Below are positions 5,854-29,329 of a stretch of DNA of 64,000 nt, piece after piece (position 1 is the first letter of the stretch; each line of letters opens with the position of its first letter). This DNA comes from an uncultured Candidatus Saccharibacteria bacterium (lineage in GTDB: Bacteria > Patescibacteriota > UBA1384 > CAILIB01), in assembly GCA_964593885.1 (NCBI GenBank), contig CAZQKK010000002.1, positions 286,990 to 350,989 of the forward strand. Reading direction: 5' to 3'. The translations under genes and the position numbers were made by a program. The notes under the pieces are model-generated. The model made no database searches, had not been told where the DNA came from, and saw only the letters and a list, made by a program, of their open reading frames with translations.

Positions 5854-7260
5854 ATGCAGGAATTCTCCTACCACCTCCGCGCCGCTGACGAGGCAAAGCT
5901 TCGTGAACTCAGTGAAACCAACCCTGAGCTCCTCAAGCCCGCTCGCGAAATGGACTTCTCACCAGAAGTGAGTGAGCTCGTTGGGATTACCCACATCCCC
6001 CAAACTGCCGGCAGCGCCCACATTAAACTCCTCTTCGAAGACTTCATCGTTGAGGAAATCACCGAAACAGGCGAGCTCTGTACCATCGCCCCATCCACAG
6101 GCTACCAAGCCCACCCGTACAACCCAGAGAATCAGAAGGTAGAGGCAACTATTGTGAAGAAAGGGATGAACGGCTTTGAGCTTTCAGAGCGTCTCGCGGA
6201 AGCCCTCAACGTTCCCCTCAAGTTCATCACCTACGGCGGACTCAAAGATGGGAGGGGAGTAACCTCGCAGCGCTACAGCTTCAACGGCATTCCCCCAGAG
6301 ATGCTTGCTGGCGTAAGAATTCCCAATACGTTCATTAAAGACATCCACCCACGCACCGGTATGCGAAACACCGGCGAGCTGCGGGGGAATCGGTTCACCC
6401 TCACCGTCAGAACATCGCCCGATACCAACCCCTACCTCTTCCACGCGAGGCTCCAAGACACTGCGCGAAACGGCTTTCTCAACTTTTTCTCACTCCAGCG
6501 GTTTGGGAGTAGGCTCAGCGCCCACCACCTCGGGCGTCTCATACTCCAACAACGTTACGACGAAGCTGTCAAAACCTTCCTCACCGAAACCTCTGATTTT
6601 GAAACGGGCCTCCTCACCTCGTACCGCAAACGTGCAGGTGAATCCTGGGGAAACTGGAGCGAAATGGCAGAAGCCTTCTCCCCGCTCCCCTACTTCTTCC
6701 AAAAAGAGCTTTCCATTCTCAAAGCCCTCGCTGATGGAGCAACACCAGTAGCTGCCCTCGCAAGCATCCCCCAGCAGGTGAAGATGTGGGTGGCTGCCTA
6801 CGAGAGCTACGCTTTCAACCTCCTCCTTTCAAGTAAGGCTAAGCAAGGTAACGTGCCAGAGAAGCTACCACAGCTCCACCCAGACTTTGAGGTGAAGCAG
6901 CTCTACAGCCAGGTACTTCCAGAGGCTGACCTTGCAAGTTTCAAGTACTACCACCCACAGCTCCTCTTCCTAGGAGGGGCGAAGCGACGCGAAACCTCAA
7001 CCTACTCCTTCCCTATCATCCACGCCTGTGAGAGGATACCTGCTGGCTACCTCCTACGCTTCGAGCTTGGCAAAGGTGCCTACGCCACCAACTTCCTCAC
7101 CAACCTCGTTTCACTCACCCAGGGGAGGTTTGCCCCAGATTGGGTGATGCCAGACCACGTTGATGCCACCGCTCAGATGGATGGCTTTGCAGTGAGTAAT
7201 ACCCTTGCCTCACTCACCCCTCAACAGGGCGAAAGTACCCTAGAAGACACCGAGGTTTGA
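5854..7260 (+). CDS. truD: tRNA pseudouridine(13) synthase TruD, long form with insertions
   Basis: FEDFIVEE (cf. PEDFVVVE), YGGLKDGRGVTSQ (cf. AGQKDKHAVTEQ) and NFFSLQRFG (cf. NYFGAQRFG). Confidence 0.75.
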   Translation: MQEFSYHLRAADEAKLRELSETNPELLKPAREMDFSPEVSELVGITHIPQTAGSAHIKLLFEDFIVEEITETGELCTIAPSTGYQAHPYNPENQKVEATIVKKGMNGFELSERLAEALNVPLKFITYGGLKDGRGVTSQRYSFNGIPPEMLAGVRIPNTFIKDIHPRTGMRNTGELRGNRFTLTVRTSPDTNPYLFHARLQDTARNGFLNFFSLQRFGSRLSAHHLGRLILQQRYDEAVKTFLTETSDFETGLLTSYRKRAGESWGNWSEMAEAFSPLPYFFQKELSILKALADGATPVAALASIPQQVKMWVAAYESYAFNLLLSSKAKQGNVPEKLPQLHPDFEVKQLYSQVLPEADLASFKYYHPQLLFLGGAKRRETSTYSFPIIHACERIPAGYLLRFELGKGAYATNFLTNLVSLTQGRFAPDWVMPDHVDATAQMDGFAVSNTLASLTPQQGESTLEDTEV

Positions 7261-7324
7261 CCAAGTCTTTCGGGGATTATAGCTACTAGTTTTTTTACTC
7301 AAATATTGCTAGCGTCGTTGTGAG

Positions 7325-8134
7325 ATGCATATTTCACTCAGCGCAGAGCACCTTTCTTTTTTTGGTTTGCATATTACCAATGCAATCCTCACCACCTGGA
7401 TCGTAAGCCTGGTCATTCTTGGTTTGGCTGTCGTTTTGCGCCGCAACCTCTCACAGGTTCCTGGGAAGATGCAGAACGTCGTAGAGATGGTCTACCTCTA
7501 CTTCCTCGATAGTGCCACCTCGATTATTGGGAGGCGCGAGATTGCTATCCAGATCTTCCCTTTCGTTGCCACCCTCTTCTTCTTCATCACCTTCTCAAAC
7601 TGGAGCGGACTCCTGCCGGGTAACCACTCGCTGGGGATCATCCACGGCTTAGATGAAGCAGGACACCCAGAAATCATCTCGTTCCTGAGGCCGCCATCCA
7701 CAGATCTCAACCTGGTAGCTGCCATGGCCATCTGTGCCGTTGGCTACGTTCAGTACATTGGCATGAAGTTCCTGGGAGCAAAGCACTACCTCGGAAAGTT
7801 CTTCAACTTCAGTAGTCCGGTGATGTTCTTCGTTGGCTTCCTTGAGTTAGTTGCTGAGTTCACCAGGATCATCAGCTACACCTTCCGTCTCTTTGGAAAC
7901 ATCTTTGCCGGCAAAGTCTTGGTAACCGTTATCTTCTTCCTCACCCTTTCCCTCGTTCAGTACGTCCCCTTCATTCCCCTTCCCTTCTACATGCTCGAAA
8001 TGTTCGTAGGGGCAATCCAGGCTTTCGTCTTCTGTTTCCTCGTCATCGTACTTACCGCCGTCGCCGTGACCAGTCACGACGATCACGGTGAGCACGAGGC
8101 CACACCCGGTCTCGCACCAGCATCAAATCACTAA
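7325..8134 (+). CDS. atpB: ATP synthase Fo subunit a
   Basis: Polytopic membrane protein at the head of the atp operon with a conserved Arg-containing C-terminal helix region (FRLFGNIFAG). Confidence 0.85.
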   Translation: MHISLSAEHLSFFGLHITNAILTTWIVSLVILGLAVVLRRNLSQVPGKMQNVVEMVYLYFLDSATSIIGRREIAIQIFPFVATLFFFITFSNWSGLLPGNHSLGIIHGLDEAGHPEIISFLRPPSTDLNLVAAMAICAVGYVQYIGMKFLGAKHYLGKFFNFSSPVMFFVGFLELVAEFTRIISYTFRLFGNIFAGKVLVTVIFFLTLSLVQYVPFIPLPFYMLEMFVGAIQAFVFCFLVIVLTAVAVTSHDDHGEHEATPGLAPASNH

Positions 8135-8160
8135 GTAGTAACCGTAAAGGGAGAACCTAT

Positions 8161-8388
8161 ATGGAAGTAGAGTCAGTAAAGCTTTGGGCGATGATGGGAA
8201 CCATCGCAGTTGGAACAATCGCACCAGCCCTCGCTATGGGAATGATCGCCTCAAAAGGCCTAGATTCAATTGGTCGCAACCCTGAGACCGAGAACGCTAT
8301 CCGTACCACCATGGTACTTGGTATCGCCTTCGTAGAGTCTATCGCCATTTTTGCCCTGGTTGTCGCCCTCATCATCAAGTTCGTCTAA
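8161..8388 (+). CDS. atpE: ATP synthase Fo subunit c
   Basis: 75-aa two-helix hairpin with GLDSIGRNPE loop and a conserved carboxylate helix (AFVESIAIFALVVAL). Confidence 0.9.
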   Translation: MEVESVKLWAMMGTIAVGTIAPALAMGMIASKGLDSIGRNPETENAIRTTMVLGIAFVESIAIFALVVALIIKFV

Positions 8389-8407
8389 TCCAAGGAAGGC
8401 GCGTCAC

Positions 8408-8893
8408 ATGGAAGCACTCGGCTTTGACCTGAAGTATTTCCTCTACCAGCTGGCTAACTTTGTGGTGCTCCTCTTCATTTTGAAGAAGCTCCTCCACAAG
8501 CCACTCCTCAACCTCCTTGAGAAACGCCGAGAGGAAATTGAGTCAGGTCTCACCAACGCCGAGGCTGCCCGTAAGGCGCTGGAGCAAACAGAGGAAGACC
8601 AAAAAGCAATTCTTGAAAATGCTCGTAAAGAGGCGCGTGGCCTCATTGAGGTAACTAAAGAAGAGGCAAAGGCCCTCGAGCTCAAGCTCACCGAGGACGC
8701 TGCCGCTAAAGCCGAGAGCCTCATGGCTAACGCTCGCACCGAACTCCACCAGGAGAAGGAACAGCTCCGTGCCGAACTTCGCTCAGAGCTAGCCGAGCTT
8801 GTGGTAACTGCAACTGAGAAGGTAATGAACGAAGCCATCACCGACGCTGAGAAGCGCAAACAGGTTGATAAGCTGGTTAAGGAGGTCTCATGA
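8408..8893 (+). CDS. atpF: ATP synthase Fo subunit b
   Basis: ATG at 8408 behind AAGGAAGG; N-terminal TM helix then long charged coiled coil. The track start at 8351 overlaps atpE and lacks an RBS. Confidence 0.75.
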   Translation: MEALGFDLKYFLYQLANFVVLLFILKKLLHKPLLNLLEKRREEIESGLTNAEAARKALEQTEEDQKAILENARKEARGLIEVTKEEAKALELKLTEDAAAKAESLMANARTELHQEKEQLRAELRSELAELVVTATEKVMNEAITDAEKRKQVDKLVKEVS

Positions 8894-19711: not shown

Positions 19712-20608
19712 ATGCCTTCACACACCACAGCATCTCAACGAGTCTCACTGCAGTTCCTCCTCAAGACCTCGCGTCCACGCTTCTGGATGTACGTCATGGG
19801 ACCAGTGGTTCTTGGCTTCCTTGCCGCAACACCATCTCTCGCCCTCCTACCGTTTGCCGCCTACCTCCTGATCTACTTTTCCTTTCCTGCAAACCTTCTC
19901 ATCTACGGGGTGAACGACATCTTTGACTTCGCCACAGACCAGCACAACGCAAAGAAGGGTACCTACGAGGTGCTCCTCCAACCAAGTCAGCGCAAGAAAG
20001 TCTGGCTAACCATCATTGCGCTCAACCTCATCTTCCTCGTGCCACTGATGTACCTTGAATTGAGCCACGGTGGCTTCTTGGTGAGCCTCTCCCTTCTCGG
20101 CTTCCTCTTCTTCGGTATCTTCTACTCGGCTCCTCCTATCAGGGCAAAGGAAATTCCTTTCCTAGACAGCTTTTTCAACATCCTCTACGTTTTTCCAGGC
20201 ATTGCCGCCTACCTGGTGGGGGGTGGGAACAAGATTAACATTCCTATCCTCGTGGCTGCCACTGCCTGGTGCATGGCCATGCACGCCTTCTCAGCCGTAC
20301 CTGATATTGCGGCAGACAAGAAGGCGAAGCTCAGAACGGTGGCCACGTACCTCGGTGAGCGAAAAACCATCATCTTCTGCGCTTGTCTCTACGGCCTCGC
20401 CACCTTACTGACATACCCAAGCCTGGGCAATCAGGTTGCGCTCCTGGGTGCAGGATACGTAGGCATCATGGTGAGTTCGCTCCAAAAGACACCAAAAAAG
20501 GCGTCTCAACCAGACGCCATCTTTGCTACCTACAAGAGCTTTCCCCTGCTCAATACTCTGGCGGGAACCGTCCTCACCCTCCTCCTGCTACGCCAGTGGC
20601 TCAGCTAG
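19712..20608 (+). CDS. UbiA-family prenyltransferase (NDIFDFATDQ motif); candidate lycopene elongase-type enzyme given its neighbourhood
   Basis: 8-9 TM helices, NDxxDxxxD motif; convergent and 21-nt overlapping with crtI. Confidence 0.7.
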   Translation: MPSHTTASQRVSLQFLLKTSRPRFWMYVMGPVVLGFLAATPSLALLPFAAYLLIYFSFPANLLIYGVNDIFDFATDQHNAKKGTYEVLLQPSQRKKVWLTIIALNLIFLVPLMYLELSHGGFLVSLSLLGFLFFGIFYSAPPIRAKEIPFLDSFFNILYVFPGIAAYLVGGGNKINIPILVAATAWCMAMHAFSAVPDIAADKKAKLRTVATYLGERKTIIFCACLYGLATLLTYPSLGNQVALLGAGYVGIMVSSLQKTPKKASQPDAIFATYKSFPLLNTLAGTVLTLLLLRQWLS

Positions 20609-22126
20609 TGGACCAGCACTCTTATCGTTACGCAAACGCTTGAGCAGGAGCTCAGCGCTAATCAGGCACATTGGCATACCAATGCCGGGGTTAGTATCGG
20701 CACCCACGTAGAAGAGGTTTTCAATCTTCTTATTGGTGTTATTTGGCCTAAATATTGCTGTCTGATTGAGGGTGTGTGCAAGTCCCAGAGCGGTACCTTG
20801 AAAACTGTTGTAGTCGGCTTTGAACTGATCAACGCTGTACACCCGTTTCTGGATCACCCGTTTCCTGAGATCTGGAATTTCCATGGTGTATTCCATGTTG
20901 TGGAGAATGGTATCCCCGTACACTTCCATCCAAACCTTGCTCTCCTCAACTCCAGCTGGAATTGGGACGAGGACAAAGAGATTCTCGTACCCTTTTGGTG
21001 CGACAGTCTCATCGGTGACACTTGGCGCACAGACGTAGTAGGAGGGATCGGTTGGGAGGTACTTGTGTTCGCCAAAAATCTGCTTGAAGTTCTCCTCCCA
21101 GTCTTCAGAAAAGACCAGGTTGTGATGGGTGAGTTGTGGTATTCTCCCCTTAATCCCGAGGTACATGATGTAGGCAGATGGGGCGAGGGTGGCTTTATCC
21201 CAGGTTTCATCTGAGATGGTTCGGTACTCCTTTGGAATAAGGGAGGTTTCGGTGTGGTGCCTATCTGTGTTAGAGACAACAATATCTGCCTCAACAACCT
21301 TGCCGCCTTCAAGGACTACCCCAACTGCCTTCCCGTTCTCTACGATAATTTGCTCAGTAGGTGCTGAATTCACCACCGTAACACCATGCTTTTCCATGAG
21401 GTTTTTGAGCACCTCAACAATCCGGTAAATGCCACCTTCTGGGTAGAACACTCCAAGGTTAAAGTCTATGTGCGCCATGATGCTGTAGAGCGCGGGGGTG
21501 TTGTAGGGAGAGCTCCCCAGGAACACCAAGTTGTACTCCATGATCTTCTGCATCTCAGGGGTGTGAAAGTAGCGGGTGACGTAGCCGTGCATCTTGCTAA
21601 ATACCCTCAGCTTGCTGCCTTTGAGAAGTGCTTCTAGGGTGAAGAAGTCTTTCACCGTGTCATAGTTCTTGTAAACAAAGCTTTGCATTGAAATCTTGTA
21701 CTGCTCTTCTGATTTCTTGAGGTACTCTCTAAACCTCGGGGTGACACCTGGCTCAATTTCCTCAAAAATCTTGAGGTCACGCTCAACGTCCCCCGTCACA
21801 TCAACGGTGAGACCGGTGTCCTTAAAGAAGATACGGTACGAAGGATCAAGTGGTTTGAGAGTAATGTGCTCGGCAATATCTTCGCCCATGAGCTTAAAGT
21901 AGTGCTCAAAGACATCTGGCATGAGGTACCAAGAAGGTCCCATGTCAAACACGAAGCCATCCTTTTTGAAGAGTCCGGCCTTTCCGCCAAGGTTAGCATT
22001 CTTCTCGTAGAGTGAAACCTTGTAGCCAGCCTTCCCCAAGAGTGCTGCAGTAGCCATGCCGCCAATACCACCCCCGATAACCACAACGTGAGTACCCTTG
22101 GCTTTCTGTGGTGTTTTCTTTGCCAT
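20588..22126 (-). CDS. crtI: phytoene desaturase (CrtI family, FAD-dependent)
   Basis: VVVIGGGIGGMATAALL dinucleotide-binding fold, 512 aa, directly downstream of the phytoene synthase gene. Confidence 0.85.
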   Translation of the reverse strand: MAKKTPQKAKGTHVVVIGGGIGGMATAALLGKAGYKVSLYEKNANLGGKAGLFKKDGFVFDMGPSWYLMPDVFEHYFKLMGEDIAEHITLKPLDPSYRIFFKDTGLTVDVTGDVERDLKIFEEIEPGVTPRFREYLKKSEEQYKISMQSFVYKNYDTVKDFFTLEALLKGSKLRVFSKMHGYVTRYFHTPEMQKIMEYNLVFLGSSPYNTPALYSIMAHIDFNLGVFYPEGGIYRIVEVLKNLMEKHGVTVVNSAPTEQIIVENGKAVGVVLEGGKVVEADIVVSNTDRHHTETSLIPKEYRTISDETWDKATLAPSAYIMYLGIKGRIPQLTHHNLVFSEDWEENFKQIFGEHKYLPTDPSYYVCAPSVTDETVAPKGYENLFVLVPIPAGVEESKVWMEVYGDTILHNMEYTMEIPDLRKRVIQKRVYSVDQFKADYNSFQGTALGLAHTLNQTAIFRPNNTNKKIENLFYVGADTNPGIGMPMCLISAELLLKRLRNDKSAGPLAEPLA

Positions 22127-22129
22127 GTA

Positions 22130-22990
22130 CTACCTCCAGTAGTGTTTGAGAATAAGCTTCAGTTTTCGCCACCTGCCAACCCGCGCCCTCCCTACAAATG
22201 GATTGTAGCCTTGCGCAGCGATACTATCCAGAATGCCTGCATAGAGTTTTGCCGCCAGCCTCACTGCCCGCCTACCCTCTGGCTTTAAGAGGTGGATTCC
22301 TTTCTCTGCTTCAGCAAAGAGGTTACGTGATCGCTCAACCTGGAATCTCATCAGTCTCAGGAGGTTCTCACTGGCGTTCCTCTCTGCGATATCGCTATCA
22401 CTGACACCATACCTCCTCATCTCATCTTGGGGAAGGTAGATTCTCCCACGCTCTCGGTAGTCTTCATCAACATCACGGAGGAAGTTGGTGAGCTGCATGG
22501 CGTTTCCAAGGTACGTAGCACTCTTTAGGACTTCATCCTCTTTTGCCCCATCTACCACTCCGATAATTTGTGCCATCATGAGGCCTACCACCACTGCGGA
22601 ACCGTACATGTAGCCTTCAAGATCACTGTAGCTCTCGTACCGTGACTTCTCCGTATCTTGGAGCATTGCCTTGAGAAAGTCTTCGCCATACGTACGGTCA
22701 ACCCCGTAAGCTTTGAACAGCTCGGTGGAAAGTTGGATGAGTGGGTCTCCTGAAGGTTTACCATCCATCTCACCATTCCAGGCGGCTATCCAACGCTCTA
22801 GCTCTCCCCTTGCTTCGGTAGGGTTCTCAGGCTCATCCACAATTTGATCAGGAATCCTTACAAACGCGTAGAGCGCGTAGGTGGCTTTCCTCAGTTTCTT
22901 TGGGAAAAACTGGGTAGCCAGGTAGTAGCTGGTACCGTGTTTCTTCTGAATTGCTTGCGCCTGCTGCTGGGCAGTCTGGATGTGTGCCAT
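22130..22990 (-). CDS. crtB: phytoene synthase (CrtB)
   Basis: YLATQFFPKKLRKATYALYAFVRIPDQIVDE and downstream DxxxD-type motifs of squalene/phytoene synthases. Confidence 0.85.
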   Translation of the reverse strand: MAHIQTAQQQAQAIQKKHGTSYYLATQFFPKKLRKATYALYAFVRIPDQIVDEPENPTEARGELERWIAAWNGEMDGKPSGDPLIQLSTELFKAYGVDRTYGEDFLKAMLQDTEKSRYESYSDLEGYMYGSAVVVGLMMAQIIGVVDGAKEDEVLKSATYLGNAMQLTNFLRDVDEDYRERGRIYLPQDEMRRYGVSDSDIAERNASENLLRLMRFQVERSRNLFAEAEKGIHLLKPEGRRAVRLAAKLYAGILDSIAAQGYNPFVGRARVGRWRKLKLILKHYWR

Positions 22991-24058
22991 CTACTTTTTC
23001 CTCGTTTCAATGAGAGTGAGGAGGGATTCCCAAGGCTTTCGCTGATCAGCTTCCAAACTCGCGAGGGCATTCCTCGCCACAGCAAAGGAGCTTGAGATTT
23101 CCCGTTCGGCCCGCGAGATGGCACCTGAGTCTCTGTAGAGAGTCTTCGCCTGCTTCAGCTCTGTTTCGGTGAGCTTGGTACCCATGAATTTCTTGAGGAG
23201 CGCCTGTTGCTCTGGGGTACCATCACTCAGAATGTAGCTGGTAAGGATGGTATGAGCGCCTTCTTGGATATCGTTGAGAACCGGCTTTTGGAGCTGCTCT
23301 TCCGTAAGGATTACATCAAAGAGGTCATCCTGGATTTGAAAACCAGTTCCAATAGCCCTCCCATAGGTGTCGGCAAACTCCATCCACTGCTTACTCCCGC
23401 CAGCAGCTACCGCACCAATCTGCATAGGCCTCACGAAGGTGTAGAGGGTTGATTTGAAGAGCGTTTTCTCGGTGAGCTCAGCTTCGGTAACCTCGGTGCG
23501 CGTGGTCATATCAACATCAATCATCTGCCCAACCACCACCTCAAGGAACATCCGTGAGAAGACAGCATTCACTGCCATCTTTTCGGCGGGTGAGATAGCC
23601 ACTTCTTGCAGTCTTGCCTGGGAGAGCGCGAGGAGGAAGTCCCCCCAGAGAATAGCCTGCGAATCCGCCACGCGTGGTAGGTTGCCAATCCTCCCCCGGG
23701 ATCGAAGCCAGCTCTCGGTGTAGTGGTGCATGGTGGTCACACCGCGCCTAGAGGCTGCTTCGTCCATAATGTCATCATGGATGAGGGCAAAGAGGTGGAA
23801 GAGCTCGAGGGCAACCGCCAGTTTCACCGCAACGTCTCTGTTGGTACCTCCAGCACTCAGGTACATCTGGTAGGCACCGTACCCCCTGATTCGCTTCCCA
23901 CCCGCGAGAATCAGCTTCTCAAGGTACTCAACGCTCTCGTCTACGTACGAAACCTTGGTTTCTTTCTGGACTGAAACAATAAGCTCTCGCACGGTGGTGG
24001 CGAGAGCTGCGTCAATTTCGTCTCGGATGGTAGAGAATGACGGTTCGGCAGCGGACAT
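22991..24058 (-). CDS. crtE: polyprenyl (geranylgeranyl) diphosphate synthase
   Basis: FARM LIHDDIMDE and SARM GFQIQDDLFD motifs. ATG at 24058 chosen, because the track start at 24136 is a GTG without support. Contiguous with crtB. Confidence 0.8.
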   Translation of the reverse strand: MSAAEPSFSTIRDEIDAALATTVRELIVSVQKETKVSYVDESVEYLEKLILAGGKRIRGYGAYQMYLSAGGTNRDVAVKLAVALELFHLFALIHDDIMDEAASRRGVTTMHHYTESWLRSRGRIGNLPRVADSQAILWGDFLLALSQARLQEVAISPAEKMAVNAVFSRMFLEVVVGQMIDVDMTTRTEVTEAELTEKTLFKSTLYTFVRPMQIGAVAAGGSKQWMEFADTYGRAIGTGFQIQDDLFDVILTEEQLQKPVLNDIQEGAHTILTSYILSDGTPEQQALLKKFMGTKLTETELKQAKTLYRDSGAISRAEREISSSFAVARNALASLEADQRKPWESLLTLIETRKK

Positions 24059-24059
24059 A

Positions 24060-24860
24060 CTATACCTGTATGCTAGCAAGATTAGCTGGTACTGGGAAGC
24101 CTTCTCGGGTGAGTGAGGTGAGTGCCTGGTGTACACGCTCAGGAGTATCCCCCGTTGCTACAACCAGTTCTTGCACATCCCAGTCCGCCTTTTCCAAGAA
24201 GAGCCTCAGGAGCTTTCCCCGCAGCTGCCTCAACGAACCCTCAAACTTTGATTGCTTCGTGTAGTGCTTACTTCGCCTATTTGCATTGGGCACCTGCTTT
24301 GCCAGCCACGAGCCGTAGTCCATGAGTGCGTAGTAGTACTCACGCGGATTATCCCGGTCTAGGTTTCGCTCAATAATTGGCATAAGCTCGGCATCAGAAA
24401 CCCCCTCTCCCTCGGGAAAGTAGTGGTGGAGGAAAACCCTCCTAATGTTGGTTTCAATCATCACAACCGGCTGGTTGTAGGCAAAAGCAACCACCGCTCC
24501 CGCCGTGTAGGGACCCACACCGGGAAGCTCCATGAGACCTTCTTGCGTAGTGGGGAAATTCCCCCGTTCAACGGTAGTGCGCGCTGCTTTCTGGAGCGAA
24601 AGGGCGCGGCGATTGTACCCTAACCCCTGCCAGAGTTTGAGGACCTCCTCGGGAGCTGCCGCTGCTAGCGCGCTTGCCGTTGGAAATGCCTCGAGGAAAG
24701 CGAGGTATTTGGGTACCACCCGCTCAGCTTGGGTCTGCTGGAGCATCACTTCTGAAACGAGCACCTTGTAAGGATCGTCAAGGTTTCGCCATGGGAGGAG
24801 GTCTCTCCCCTGTTCATGGTAGAACTTCATTACCAGCGCCCTAAAATCGGTATCTTCCAT
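24060..24860 (-). CDS. HhH-GPD superfamily DNA glycosylase (EndoIII/MutY-like) without FeS-cluster cysteines
   Basis: LPGVGPYTAGAVVAFAYNQPVVMIETNIRRV helix-hairpin-helix/GPD motif. No C-x6-C-x2-C-x5-C cluster loop. ATG 24860 with GGAAAGG RBS, 1 nt after the upstream gene's stop. Confidence 0.7.
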   Translation of the reverse strand: MEDTDFRALVMKFYHEQGRDLLPWRNLDDPYKVLVSEVMLQQTQAERVVPKYLAFLEAFPTASALAAAAPEEVLKLWQGLGYNRRALSLQKAARTTVERGNFPTTQEGLMELPGVGPYTAGAVVAFAYNQPVVMIETNIRRVFLHHYFPEGEGVSDAELMPIIERNLDRDNPREYYYALMDYGSWLAKQVPNANRRSKHYTKQSKFEGSLRQLRGKLLRLFLEKADWDVQELVVATGDTPERVHQALTSLTREGFPVPANLASIQV

Positions 24861-25953: not shown

Positions 25954-25983
25954 TACCACACCCCAACAGGTGTGGTTTTTTTA
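25954..25983. terminator. bidirectional Rho-independent terminator
   Basis: CCACACC-CCAACA-GGUGUGG flanked by an A7 run upstream and a T7 run downstream, between convergent genes. Confidence 0.65.
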
Positions 25984-26400
25984 GAACTTTCGTACTACCA
26001 ACCCCCACTCACCAACGTGAGAAGCAATTTCGTCTCCGGTAAACGCATAGTTTTGGCTGTGAGGGACTGGCTTTTCACCAACTGCTCCCATTTCCTCAGG
26101 GCTCACCTTGCGCTCTTTGGCGTCGCCATCTGGAATGGTTAGGATTGAGAGGAACTTGTGCGAACCTGCGTTTGCGCGTACCTGTGCCTCGTTATCACTG
26201 AAGAACTGCTGATCCTTCACAATACCCCTCAGCTCAACAAGCCTCACGTACTTCTCCTTACCCATGCGCCTGAAGGCATCAACCATGTACTCCCCGGCTG
26301 GGCCGCTGTCCCGCTCGCGCTCGAGGTGGGCCAGTTCACTCCTCAGCGCATCGGTGGCGATTTGGGGCGAATCAGATGTTGCTCGGTAGAGGGTGATCAT
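25981..26400 (-). CDS. hypothetical cytoplasmic protein (139 aa), co-transcribed downstream of the nuclease
   Basis: 4-nt overlap with the nuclease gene; no signal peptide. Confidence 0.4.
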   Translation of the reverse strand: MITLYRATSDSPQIATDALRSELAHLERERDSGPAGEYMVDAFRRMGKEKYVRLVELRGIVKDQQFFSDNEAQVRANAGSHKFLSILTIPDGDAKERKVSPEEMGAVGEKPVPHSQNYAFTGDEIASHVGEWGLVVRKF

Positions 26401-27023
26401 CGTTTCCCGTTACAGCTAGATGGGTTCCAAAATCCTTTTGATTCTTCTTTAGCACCAAGCTCAGCTGCCTTGAAGGCTTTCTGGAACTTGTAGGGTTTCT
26501 GGTAGGTGTACTCAGTTCCGTAACCTTCTTGAATGAGCTGTAGGTTGAAGAAGGTGCCATCTGGTAGGTAGACATAGCGAAGGATCCTGTTGTACTTATC
26601 AACATCCCCCTGGGTTGGATCTCCCTCAAGTACCACCTCTTTGCCTGAAAGCTTCTCCTTGGTGAACTGTGAGGCCTCTTTGCCAAAGCACTGCACCGTT
26701 TTGCGAGGATCAACTGTTTCAGGAGTATCTACCCCAAGCAGTCTGACGGTTTGTTCGCTCCCATCTTGCAACCTCACCTTGAAGGTATCCCCGTCAGCCA
26801 CGCTCACCACTGTGGGGCGAAGCGAAATGTTTGCGTTGGTAGCATTTTGGGTGGCAGCTGGTGTTGGTTGTACAGTTGCCTCAGCAGTAGGTACACCTAA
26901 CAGTTTTCCCAACTCACTACCAGTAGCGGCGGTTTTTGGCGAAAGCTGAAAGAGAAATACCAGCGCTAGGAGCGCCACTGTAACACCAATGTTTGAGAGT
27001 TGCTTTCTTGAGGCTTTCCGCAT
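26397..27023 (-). CDS. secreted/membrane-anchored thermonuclease (SNase-like)
   Basis: N-terminal signal/anchor (VTVALLALVFLF). SNase motif VADGDTFKVRL....VRLLGVDTPET. ATG at 27023, because the track start at 27059 is TTG. Confidence 0.75.
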   Translation of the reverse strand: MRKASRKQLSNIGVTVALLALVFLFQLSPKTAATGSELGKLLGVPTAEATVQPTPAATQNATNANISLRPTVVSVADGDTFKVRLQDGSEQTVRLLGVDTPETVDPRKTVQCFGKEASQFTKEKLSGKEVVLEGDPTQGDVDKYNRILRYVYLPDGTFFNLQLIQEGYGTEYTYQKPYKFQKAFKAAELGAKEESKGFWNPSSCNGKR

Positions 27024-27059
27024 AGCTGCAGTATACGCTCGCAACGAGGTTGGGTGCAA

Positions 27060-27443
27060 AATTTGAAGCCCACCCCGAATGAGGGGTGGGCAGATTCAGC
27101 ATCCTCCGGACATCAACACAGGCCAGGTAACCCTGTGCAACCACGTACGAGTGACGCTTCTCACCATATGAGCCTGCCCTGACAGCGCTGCTGGGAAGAG
27201 CACCTGGGAGCCTCAACCAACACGTGCGAACAGGCGACATGTACCGGACAGGTGCAAATGAGCACCCCCGATTGCGTCTCCCTTGCCTCGGCGCACCGTT
27301 TGGTACCCGGATTGGCTAGGAGAGTGACTCTCACATCCGGAAGGTATCCGGCGGAGGTCGCTGAGCGTCAGTTCCAATGGTGAACCGAACGGTAACCTAC
27401 GAGGTGTGAGTTACCTGGTAACTCTAGCAGATTGAGGAAACCC
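27060..27443. ncRNA. candidate structured ncRNA locus (possibly RNase P RNA-like); orientation unresolved
   Basis: 384 nt with no credible ORF, GC-rich, many stable hairpins. On +: a 9-bp hairpin GCCCACCCC-GAAUGA-GGGGUGGGC, then UCCGG, then CCAGGUAACCCUG and GUGCAAC, in the same order as P3 / P4-5' strand / P8 / GUGCAAC of bacterial RNase P RNA. On -: a TTGTAA-17-TAGAGT promoter-like element just after the ddl stop, and the same 9-bp hairpin followed by UUCAAAUUUU as a terminator. Confidence 0.3.
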
Positions 27444-28376
27444 TTACAAAGATACAGCGTACTGATGTGATATGTATTTCTTCGCTACCTCAACTAACCG
27501 CGAAACGAAGTCATTGTAAGGTATACCCGCTGCTTGCAACTCTTTGGGGAGGAGCGACGTCTTGGTCATACCAGGTAGCGTATTAATCTCAAGAAAGTAT
27601 GGCTTTCCGTCTTCGCTCAAGATCCAATCAACACGGGCGTAGTGCCTGCAGCCCAAGACTTTGAATGCTTGGAGCGACAGTTCCTGTAGTTCTTTTGTAA
27701 CTTTTTCAGGTAAATTTGCGGGGCACATTTCTTCACACTTACTTGAGGTGTACTTCGCATCAAAGTTGAAAAACTCTTCGGTGGGACGAATTTCTACGAG
27801 TGGAAGAACCTCTGGACTTCCCTCCAAATGGATCACGCCACACGTCAGCTCCCTTCCCTTAACAAAGGTCTCGAGGAGAATTTCACTGCCGTACTTGAAT
27901 GCTTCCTCCACTGCTTGTGTGAGCGCTTCAGGGCTTTTCACAATGGTTACTCCGAAACTGGAGCCATCGCCATTTGGCTTCACTACCACAGGGTAGGTTT
28001 CATCCCAGGTTACTGCATGTCCTTTTGAGAACCGCTTAGAGGTTGGGGTGAGAATAGGCGTTTGTGCCGAAACCACCTCTTTAGTTTTGGTCTTATCGAT
28101 GGTGAGTTTGGAGACCACTGAGCTAGAACCGGTGTAGGGTATTCCGGCCTCTTCAAGTAACCTCTGCACCTGACCATCTTCACCAAAGGGACCGTGGAGA
28201 GCAATGATAACCAGCTTTGATTGCGCCTCAACTACCTGGTTCAGCCAATCGGAGTCTGCCGCATCAACTTCCTGGAATGGGAGCTTAAGTGACGCGATGG
28301 CATCGGCGATTGTTGCCGCCGTCCAGAGTGATACCTCACGTTCTGCCGATGTTCCGCCTTTGAGAATGGTAATCAT
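27444..28376 (-). CDS. ddl: D-alanine--D-alanine ligase
   Basis: Full-length Ddl homology (ATP-grasp): GPFGEDG, EVNTLPGMT-type C-terminal motifs. Confidence 0.9.
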   Translation of the reverse strand: MITILKGGTSAEREVSLWTAATIADAIASLKLPFQEVDAADSDWLNQVVEAQSKLVIIALHGPFGEDGQVQRLLEEAGIPYTGSSSVVSKLTIDKTKTKEVVSAQTPILTPTSKRFSKGHAVTWDETYPVVVKPNGDGSSFGVTIVKSPEALTQAVEEAFKYGSEILLETFVKGRELTCGVIHLEGSPEVLPLVEIRPTEEFFNFDAKYTSSKCEEMCPANLPEKVTKELQELSLQAFKVLGCRHYARVDWILSEDGKPYFLEINTLPGMTKTSLLPKELQAAGIPYNDFVSRLVEVAKKYISHQYAVSL

Positions 28377-28929: not shown

Positions 28930-29006
28930 TGGTCGGGGAAAGAGGATTCGAACCTCCGATCTCTGGACCCCCAGCCCAGCGCACTAGTCCACTATGCTAT
29001 TCCCCG
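28930..29006 (-). tRNA. tRNA-Pro (anticodon GGG), CCA encoded
   Basis: Reverse complement folds as a cloverleaf: 7-bp acceptor CGGGGAA/UUCCCCG, U8, D-arm GCAU/GUGC with a GG loop, anticodon stem CUGGG/UCCAG with loop CU-GGG-GG, 5-nt variable loop, T-arm GGAGG-UUCGAAU-CCUCU, discriminator A, CCA. Confidence 0.85.
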
Positions 29007-29140
29007 AGGAGAAATGCGTCGCGGAAATGCTTGCATTTCCATGACCATTTCGACGAGGGGAAATCAGCAAAGCTGATTGTCCCCGAGACTCAGTGTTGTC
29101 AGGGTAACCCGCCGCAGGCGGGTGTCCCCGAGGCTCCGTC
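29007..29140 (-). repeat. tRNA-5'-end-like direct repeats (CTCGGGGA x3 including the tRNA itself) interleaved with three strong hairpins
   Basis: Reading the - strand upstream of the tRNA: CCUCGGGGACACCCGCCUGCGGCGGGU..., CUCGGGGACAAUCAGCUUUGCUGAUUUCCCCUCG..., then CUCGGGGAAUAGC (the tRNA 5' end). Hairpins: ACCCGCC-GCA-GGCGGGU, AAUCAGC-AAA-GCUGAUU, GGAAAUGC/GCAUUUCC. Confidence 0.4.
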
Positions 29141-29329
29141 TGTAATTTAAAGGGCCCACGAGCGTCGTATGCGGCCTGGAGATATCCAGGTGGGCTGCCT
29201 CACTGCCACTCCACGGAGTTGCAAAATATCGGCGTCCCAATGCATGAAAAGATGACCACATACACGCCCGTAGGCACTTCACACCGTAACCCATTTACCC
29301 TGGAATAGCAACAGAGTATACTTGGGTAT

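Follow-up and report, generated by a model that had tools for sequence, protein, structure and literature searches.

Evidence for a conserved, uncatalogued structured RNA of about 355 nt upstream of a nuclease gene in uncultured bacteria

This work concerns a 64,000-nucleotide (nt) stretch of contig CAZQKK010000002.1, from an uncultured bacterium, which we refer to as the window. Within it, two minus-strand genes confirmed with Pfam, ddl (27444..28376) and the gene for an SNase-family nuclease (26397..27023), are separated by an interval with only short overlapping open reading frames (ORFs), in several frames. We find that this interval likely contains a separate minus-strand gene for a folded non-coding RNA (ncRNA), of about 355 nt, that falls outside the catalogued families. 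An earlier reading of the sequence, which we call the original prediction, had flagged the region as a candidate structured ncRNA, possibly resembling RNase P RNA. Conservation and covariation across three lineages give strong support to the generic part of this claim, whereas the RNase P-like identity fails. Hence, we regard the element as an evolutionarily conserved structured RNA; this is strongly supported, since compensatory pairs are above controls. The RNA family appears new and uncatalogued. Note that our claim of novelty is for the RNA family only and does not extend to its mechanism. For RNA biology, the value lies in an uncatalogued RNA of ~355 nt, from a reduced-genome lineage, with well-defined limits and support from covariation.

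Conservation, fold and strand of the RNA

Contigs were fetched via homologs of ddl and the nuclease, giving seven related lineages with conserved gene order. In addition to the copy in the window, we found a copy in L009/L010 by blastn (75% identity over 332 nt, E = 8e-51) and another in L025 by nhmmer (E = 4.5e-43). The nuclease proteins of L009 and L025 are 67-72% identical to that of the window. For the RNA, 79-83% of aligned positions are identical and, for the nuclease DNA, the equivalent range is 72-76%.

The segment 27058..27414 is non-coding, GC-rich, and strongly self-complementary. In 200-nt windows across 27100..27399, GC content is 0.595-0.605, compared with 0.45-0.53 for most neighbouring windows. 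Folding of the interval, relative to shuffled sequences, gave minimum free energy (MFE) z-scores of -3.0 for the minus strand and -2.4 for the plus strand. The alignment between window and L009 copies has many insertions and deletions, with lengths that are not multiples of three, and variable stretches lie between invariant blocks in the alignments. Translated similarity among the copies shows up in every frame of both strands, and no single ORF is conserved. Hence, the element is not coding, and a small protein gene was rejected on these grounds. The original prediction of a GC-rich, self-complementary region, with no coding gene, is borne out by the ORFs, base composition, and folding z-scores.

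With the three sequences, RNAalifold produced a structure of 103 pairs, 23 of which have compensatory changes. Our curated fold, counted on alignment A5, comprises 15 helices with 98 pairs in total, and one of these helices is a loop-loop contact. Pairs in which both sides have changed number 24. By comparison, column shuffles gave 9.5±2.5 such pairs (0 of 500 shuffles reached 24) and controls with slid partners gave 1-5. The original prediction had looked to comparative covariation for support and, in this respect, it is upheld. The best-supported helices are the two 5' hairpins, H1 and H2 (with two and three double-sided pairs, respectively), hairpin e (three), hairpin g (five), and the terminal hairpin (three), together with parts of domain f. 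All are listed in Table 1.

Other parts of the fold vary in different ways. Hairpin a is GGG-UUCAUUU-CCC in L009 and AGCGU-UCAUUC-ACGCU in L025; the stems differ and are always complementary. Note that MAFFT misaligned this hairpin, so it was left out of the covariation count. In the three-tiered domain, the outer helix changes from U-G to A-U and the tip from A-U to G-C. Hairpin e contains two invariant G-U pairs and has a longer stem in L025. Domain f is the most variable part of the RNA and has a 20-nt insertion in L025. Conversely, the closing helix P1 (CAGCG-A-CCUCCG with CGGAGG-A-UGCUG) is 93.9% paired and almost invariant.

Seven blocks are invariant in all three copies: AGAGUCACUCUCC, GCCAAUCCGGGU, GCCGAGGC, GGAGACGCAAUCGGGGG, CUGUCCGG, AAGCGUCACUCGU, and CCGGAGGAUGCUG. 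In hairpin g, the string ACCUGG (27128..27123) is complementary to CCAGGU in domain f. The equivalent loop pair in L025 is ACUUGG/CCAAGU, a single exchange of C-G for U-A, and the 6-bp contact is otherwise invariant. The two strings are a candidate for a tertiary, or intermolecular, kissing interaction. The string UCAYUY also recurs. Sites common to all three copies are in the terminal hairpin loop and in two invariant junction blocks. Sites present in some copies are in the loops of hairpin e (window and L009) and hairpin a (L009 and L025). Strings similar to hammerhead or box C/D motifs were, by inspection, unconserved and were rejected.

The predicted promoter of the RNA begins with a -35-like TTGTAA (27449..27444) that overlaps the ddl stop codon. 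The TG-extended -10 element is TGCTAGAGT in the window (27429..27421), TGGTACGGT in L009, and TGCTAGACT in L025, with the consensus TGnTAnnnT. Between the -10 box and the conserved 5' end, GUA(A/G)(C/U)UCA, the spacing is exactly 6 nt in all three copies. Leaderless genes of the window, described below, have the same distance from -10 box to first transcribed base. At the opposite end, the stem of the terminal hairpin covaries (ACCCGUCGC/GCGGCGGGU in L025, with one U-G pair) and its UCAUUC loop is invariant. The U-tract that follows is good in L025 and moderate in the window. We consider this hairpin a probable terminator or 3'-end structure. Three details of the original prediction are present in the window as described: the element TTGTAA-17-TAGAGT, on the minus strand (27449..27421), the 9-bp hairpin GCCCACCCC-GAATGA-GGGGTGGGC (27068..27091), and the tail UUCAAAUUUU (27067..27058).

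The strand, left open by the original prediction, can now be assigned. Our fold contains 36 G-U cells, several of which are invariant within covarying helices, and each would be an A·C mismatch on the plus strand. RNAalifold gave -106.3 kcal/mol for the minus strand versus -93.2 kcal/mol for the plus strand, with structure conservation indices of 0.73 and 0.69, respectively. Hence, the conserved spacing of the -10 box, the G-U cells, the RNAalifold energies, and the U-rich tails in two of three copies place the RNA on the minus strand.

Table 1. Coordinates of the RNA, its promoter and helices, and associated features (window coordinates unless a lineage is named).
Feature	Position	Strand	Description
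ncRNA	27058..27414	minus	about 357 nt; blastn (L009), nhmmer (L025), covariation
RNA promoter	27421..27449	minus	-35-like TTGTAA, 17-nt spacer, TG-extended -10
Predicted RNA 5' end	G27414	minus	3' end in U-rich tail past terminal hairpin
H1, 5' hairpin	27392..27414	minus	GUAACUC...AGGUUAC; 2 double-sided pairs, invariant U-G
H2, second 5' hairpin	27366..27391	minus	CGU-UCGGU...ACUG-ACG; 3 double-sided pairs, 100% paired
P1 5' strand CAGCGACCUCCG	27352..27363	minus	pairs with 27097..27108; closes core of ~245 nt
Hairpin a	27337..27351	minus	CCGGA-UACCU-UCCGG; stem differs per lineage
AGAGUCACUCUCC (invariant) and three-tiered hairpin domain	27279..27331	minus	CUCC/GGAG, GCC/GGC, CGG/CCG, variable tip
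GACGC and hairpin e (AUCGGGGGUGC-UCAUUU-GCACCUGUCCGGU)	27243..27278	minus	GACGC pairs with GCGUC 27153..27157
Domain f	27169..27236	minus	long irregular hairpin; big end loop with CCAGGU 27207..27202
Hairpin g	27115..27139	minus	conserved 9-nt loop GUUACCUGG; stem with 5 double-sided pairs
P1 3' strand CCGGAGGAUGCUG	27097..27109	minus	invariant in 3/3 copies
Terminal hairpin and tail	27058..27091	minus	GCCCACCCC-UCAUUC-GGGGUGGGC, then UUCAAAUUUU
Predicted nuclease promoter	27030..27059	minus	TTGCAC-18-TATACT, 6 nt, ATG at 27023
Variable spot	window 27024..27443; L005 6943..8271; L009 6897..7670; L011 2297..2376; L022 526..1242

Distribution and comparison with known RNA families

The RNA is missing in four of the seven lineages (L005, L011, L022, and L027), an observation that applies to the syntenic site only. 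In L005-L008, an aminotransferase gene is found at the site in place of the RNA, and L011 has an 80-nt gap. L022-L024 have a lipase gene and then just 83 nt before the nuclease gene. In L027, the nuclease promoter comes immediately after a tRNA terminator. Among close relatives, the ddl-nuclease interval therefore varies in content: it may have the RNA gene, a gene for a class III aminotransferase or for a GDSL lipase, or nothing. Nuclease identity pairs the window with L005 (92%) and L009 with L022 (84%). Hence, RNA-bearing and RNA-lacking lineages are interleaved. RNA divergence tracks nuclease divergence, and the pattern fits vertical descent with repeated loss, or relocation.

Further copies were sought in several ways. 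A covariance model of the 95 most conserved positions, applied to 231 kb of the window and related loci, recovered the three known copies only, and a mismatch-tolerant motif search returned the same three. No copy was found in the distant ddl neighbourhoods L012-L016. Among GTDB species-representative genomes, the ddl protein matched just 33-35% identical ddl of unrelated phyla, and no close relative was found. A look-up of exact matches to the ddl of the window was also negative. In metagenome contigs, the pattern ACGCAATCGGGGN{8,24}CCTGTCCGG had four matches, none of which were homologs according to nhmmer (0/4). Patterns of conserved blocks had one chance match in viral contigs, inside a GC-rich region, and detected no homologs there. 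Searches of phage and plasmid collections with blastn gave zero matches. Similarly, a protein search with six-frame translations of the three copies, for spurious ORFs over homologs, found none. So far, the family is rare, with three members found, and restricted to a few related uncultured bacteria. The host clade is probably small and of the Patescibacteria type; homologs of proteins from the window are labelled Candidatus Berkelbacteria, Patescibacteria group bacterium, or with a 'PAT4' soil-metagenome tag. This rarity limits both the statistics and the immediate impact.

Known families were assessed with covariance models and motif searches. At gathering thresholds, cmscan of the whole 64-kb window reported only tRNA-Pro (28933..29006), and no rnpB. 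A permissive cmscan of 26900..27600 had a best E-value of 2, and models for RNase P, transfer-messenger RNA (tmRNA), signal recognition particle (SRP) RNA, and 6S RNA were absent from the output. When Rfam was applied to the L009 and L025 copies, there was no shared match, and no family reached E = 10 consistently across the three copies. The four housekeeping RNAs were those that the original prediction had singled out for cmscan; nothing was found for any of them up to E = 10, on either strand, in the three copies. For RNase P, this covers the bacterial A/B and archaeal models, which were also below gathering score in the window. ARAGORN, run on the window, gave tRNA-Pro only, and there was no Rfam tmRNA match. 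The 6S model (RF00013), with its long hairpin and central bubble, was unmatched in 26900..27600, and the SRP models and domain IV motif were unmatched. The same was true of covariance models for OLE, ROOL, GOLLD, raiA, and HEARO, and of riboswitch families in the three copies. TRF detected no tandem repeats, a feature of type III antitoxins, in 26950..27500. We found no description of such an RNA in the literature.

The resemblance to RNase P had been drawn from plus-strand strings likened to P3, P4, and P8. These strings are present, but matches to signature motifs are no better than shuffles on either strand. The strings are the antisense of helices in the minus-strand RNA and are chance matches. 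For the P4 strands CR-I (GAGGAAAGUCCGGGC-like) and CR-V (ACAGAAcCCGGCUUA-like), using motif strings of E. coli M1 RNA, the best matches have 5-7 mismatches in 15 positions, and 22-100% of shuffles equal them. Strings for J11/12 of RNase P, the tmRNA T-arm, and SRP domain IV also did no better than shuffles on either strand.

Working model and alternative explanations

We propose that the RNA would be transcribed from its own TG-extended -10 promoter, starting at approximately G27414 and ending at the conserved 9-bp hairpin. The product would be an independent, stable, and highly structured RNA of ~355 nt, from an uncatalogued family. Its predicted fold has two 5' hairpins, the long closing helix P1, and a multi-helix core with the seven invariant blocks, and a candidate 6-bp kissing contact between two arms. 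We infer that the RNA works in trans, as a compact scaffold. The UCAYUY repeats could be multivalent recognition sites, for a protein partner or self-association, and the complementary loops may lock two arms together or join two molecules. Loss of the RNA from this site, in sister lineages, suggests an accessory rather than a housekeeping role. Note that the data are compatible with both a scaffold and a ribozyme and cannot distinguish between them. More broadly, this RNA could be the first known example of a new class of ornate bacterial ncRNAs, confined to a small clade that is probably Patescibacteria. Function would then stem from the three-dimensional fold, for example as a ribozyme, RNA-only assembly, or RNA-protein assembly, with ACCUGG/CCAGGU and the UCAYUY loops mediating self-association or multivalent protein binding. 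For this broader proposal, we consider the balance of probability to be even.

Patescibacteria, or bacteria of the candidate phyla radiation (CPR) type, have very small genomes with little non-coding DNA. Therefore, a conserved RNA gene of 355 nt, with its own predicted promoter, is unlikely to be idle. To our knowledge, new large and intricately folded bacterial RNAs are rare. Earlier cases, namely RNase P, OLE, ROOL, and GOLLD, proved to be ribozymes, ribonucleoprotein complexes, or RNA-only assemblies that had not been expected. With its boundaries and strand assigned, and with a secondary structure and a candidate tertiary contact that can be tested, the RNA described here is open to direct synthesis and probing. 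Partners could be sought by a natural comparison, between sister lineages that have the RNA and those that lack it.

Our RNA is most readily compared to OLE, ROOL, GOLLD, the raiA motif, and HEARO. Like these, it has a stand-alone or loosely linked gene, a length of several hundred nt, many helices, invariant junction blocks, loop-loop contacts, a restricted phylogeny, and a function that cannot be deduced from neighbours. Conversely, it has no sequence or structure match to those Rfam families, is smaller than OLE, ROOL, and GOLLD, has three known members, and is outside a prophage context. In RNAs of the CsrB/RsmZ type, a GGA motif is repeated in exposed hairpin loops, for multivalent binding of one protein. 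Our RNA is like CsrB/RsmZ and 6S in having its own predicted promoter and terminator, and its exposed hairpin loops also repeat a short motif, here UCAYUY, which suggests multivalent binding of one protein. However, our RNA has far fewer copies of its motif than CsrB/RsmZ, and a compact long-range fold instead of a string of hairpins. The Rfam model for 6S misses this RNA, with a weak match at 29149..29279 instead. ROOL, GOLLD, and OLE are reported to form homo-oligomeric complexes (PMC12286853). Solely by analogy, the complementary loop pair of our RNA could likewise join molecules.

Several points weigh against our interpretation. The curated structure comes from the same three sequences, so the percentage of its cells that are paired, 95.9% (36-42% with partners slid by 1-3 columns), is inflated. 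For a related reason, the contrast between sense and antisense is partly circular: 279 of 291 cells are canonical on the minus strand, where the structure was derived, versus 247 of 291 on the plus strand. P1 and GACGC/GCGUC are nearly invariant in the three homologs and rest on thermodynamics, without proof from covariation. Alternative pairings are predicted for the invariant helices and, in the case of P1, RNAalifold provides one. Counts of UCAYUY, at 4-5 per copy versus 0.4-0.7 expected, are not independent, given the homology of the copies. Comparison supports two elements of the original prediction, the promoter on the minus strand and the terminal hairpin, but a simple consensus scanner calls neither promoter nor terminator at its thresholds. 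In L009, the U-tract after the terminal hairpin is poor to absent. The trans-acting scaffold is a working model, reached by inference only. Finally, the RNA adjoins the nuclease gene in all three copies, directly upstream and in the same orientation, so that we retain a cis-acting role as a minority view.

Such a role would make the element a leader or attenuator of the nuclease operon, with a ligand or protein controlling read-through at the terminal hairpin. The constant position of the RNA, despite an upstream neighbour that varies (for the window copy, ddl; for L009, a GDSL lipase gene in divergent orientation; for L025, a tRNA gene and its terminator), is consistent with this, as is the hairpin with U-rich tail that lies between the RNA and the nuclease gene. 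However, the predicted nuclease promoter is downstream of this hairpin, at a distance of 6 nt from the ATG, and sets the limit of the RNA gene on that side. Its layout (TTGCRC, 17-18 nt, TAnAnT, 6 nt, ATG) is kept in 7/7 lineages, with or without the RNA, and hence in the four that lack it. In a riboswitch, no promoter would separate aptamer and gene; here, the predicted nuclease promoter intervenes. In addition, a transcript reading through the hairpin would have no Shine-Dalgarno sequence before the ATG. The nuclease gene shares this arrangement with ddl, the UbiA-family gene, and the gene for a 781-aa protein, each of which lacks a Shine-Dalgarno sequence and has a -10-like box (TATACT or TACAAT) 4-7 nt upstream of its ATG. 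Starts with this leaderless layout (27030..27023, 28376+, 19712-, and 29330-) belong to the first genes of operons, and suggest that leaderless mRNAs are widespread in this organism. Given the conserved promoter and leaderless layout, the nuclease is most simply taken to be transcribed on its own, with the RNA as a separate unit. We see no conserved pairing that could act as antiterminator; the hairpin stem differs in L025, and no other part changes to match it. When the alignment was inspected, with three sequences being too few for certainty, it revealed no mutually exclusive terminator and antiterminator pairings. There is also no match to a riboswitch family. The RNA is probably not a leader of the nuclease gene, and we consider a cis-acting device of this kind unlikely. 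The order of RNA gene, hairpin, and nuclease gene, in one orientation, also recalls type III toxin-antitoxin systems (ToxI type). Here, though, tandem repeats are absent, and the nuclease gene, with its own predicted promoter, is also found in four lineages that lack the RNA. Furthermore, unlike in ToxI-type systems, the N-terminus of the nuclease includes a hydrophobic segment of signal or anchor type, as read by eye from the translation.

Other explanations take the element to be something different from a minus-strand ncRNA of a new family. The functional strand could be plus, with the element acting as 5' leader of the divergent GDSL lipase gene of L009 and orphaned in the window by lipase loss. 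Although the L009 lipase gene does follow the element on the plus strand, and this strand folds well (z = -2.4), L022-L024 have the lipase gene, 83 nt before the nuclease gene, with the RNA missing. A -10 box lies 6 nt upstream of the true start of the lipase (MLGK...), giving the gene a leaderless promoter of its own, and the L009 lipase call runs 19 codons too far, into the RNA promoter region. The window and L025 have no lipase gene yet keep the RNA, with compensatory changes. The 36 G-U cells would become A·C mismatches, and visual inspection of the alignments, without a tool-based scan of the homologs, showed no conserved promoter on the plus strand. Hence, we find this account highly unlikely. 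Variability of the ddl-nuclease interval among relatives (aminotransferase, lipase, or nothing), and the patchy presence of the RNA, might point to a decaying remnant, such as a pseudogene or mobile-element relic, or to a DNA-level element with no RNA function. That is very improbable, given conservation at least equal to that of neighbouring coding DNA and the 24 double-sided compensatory pairs. An aminotransferase or lipase gene remnant was rejected, as tblastn detected neither. There were no phage or plasmid collection matches and no tandem repeats. Target-site duplication was also rejected; the sole direct repeat nearby in the flanks is a 10-mer with a mismatch, and its two copies do not bracket the element. 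Lastly, a divergent RNase P RNA, or another housekeeping RNA (tmRNA, SRP, or 6S), would match bacterial RNase P RNA (RF00010/RF00011) in size (~350 nt) and in being a stand-alone gene with a closing helix and then a terminal hairpin, and the 64-kb window has no rnpB. However, the RNA has no P4 pseudoknot or CR-I/CR-V, the P4, T-arm, and SRP motifs are at shuffle level, and no covariance-model match at E <=10 was found for the three copies on both strands, with ARAGORN finding no tmRNA. The RNA is also dispensable at this locus, being missing from the syntenic site in L005, L011, L022, and L027, and a separate 6S-like candidate exists at 29149..29279. A housekeeping identity is barely credible.

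Other features of the window and related loci

Several gene calls overlap the RNA or its surroundings. The window ORF 26917..27240 (107 aa) is a spurious call over the RNA. In L009, the nuclease gene (7966..8712) is called 40 codons too long, from an ATG inside GGAGGATG of the P1 3' strand, and the lipase gene (6897..7670) is called 19 codons too long, reaching into the RNA promoter region. The imperfect 10-nt direct repeat, GCAGATT(C/G)AG, occurs at 27090..27099 and 27427..27436, 337 nt apart. P1 and the terminal hairpin flank the first copy, and the second lies in the spacer of the RNA promoter; the repeat is probably a chance occurrence.

Downstream of the nuclease gene, and overlapping its stop codon, the minus strand encodes a 139-aa protein (25981..26400) with no matches in Pfam, NCBIfam, or PADLOC. 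In all related loci of sufficient length, a gene for 139 aa comes after the nuclease gene, and in two short contigs it is cut. The protein could be a cognate inhibitor, or partner, of the nuclease.

A second RNA candidate lies between tRNA-Pro and the 781-aa gene. The region 29007..29325, with its core at 29149..29279 on the minus strand, is conserved, ORF-free, and GC-rich. It aligns with L005 across 447 nt (88% identity) and with L009 across 412 nt (73.5%), and pieces of it occur in L012 and L015. The MFE z-score is -5.3. The 6S model RF00013 gave full-length, sub-threshold matches of 26.1 bits at 29149..29279 and 21 bits at the homologous site in L009. This is probably a short, divergent 6S RNA, which casts doubt on the remark, in the original prediction, that the window has no evident 6S gene.

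At 19712..24136, the window has a carotenoid-type cluster that is conserved in relatives, although the organism appears to be Patescibacteria-like, with a small genome. Its genes encode a UbiA-family prenyltransferase, a phytoene desaturase-like amino oxidase, a phytoene/squalene synthase, and a polyprenyl synthetase.

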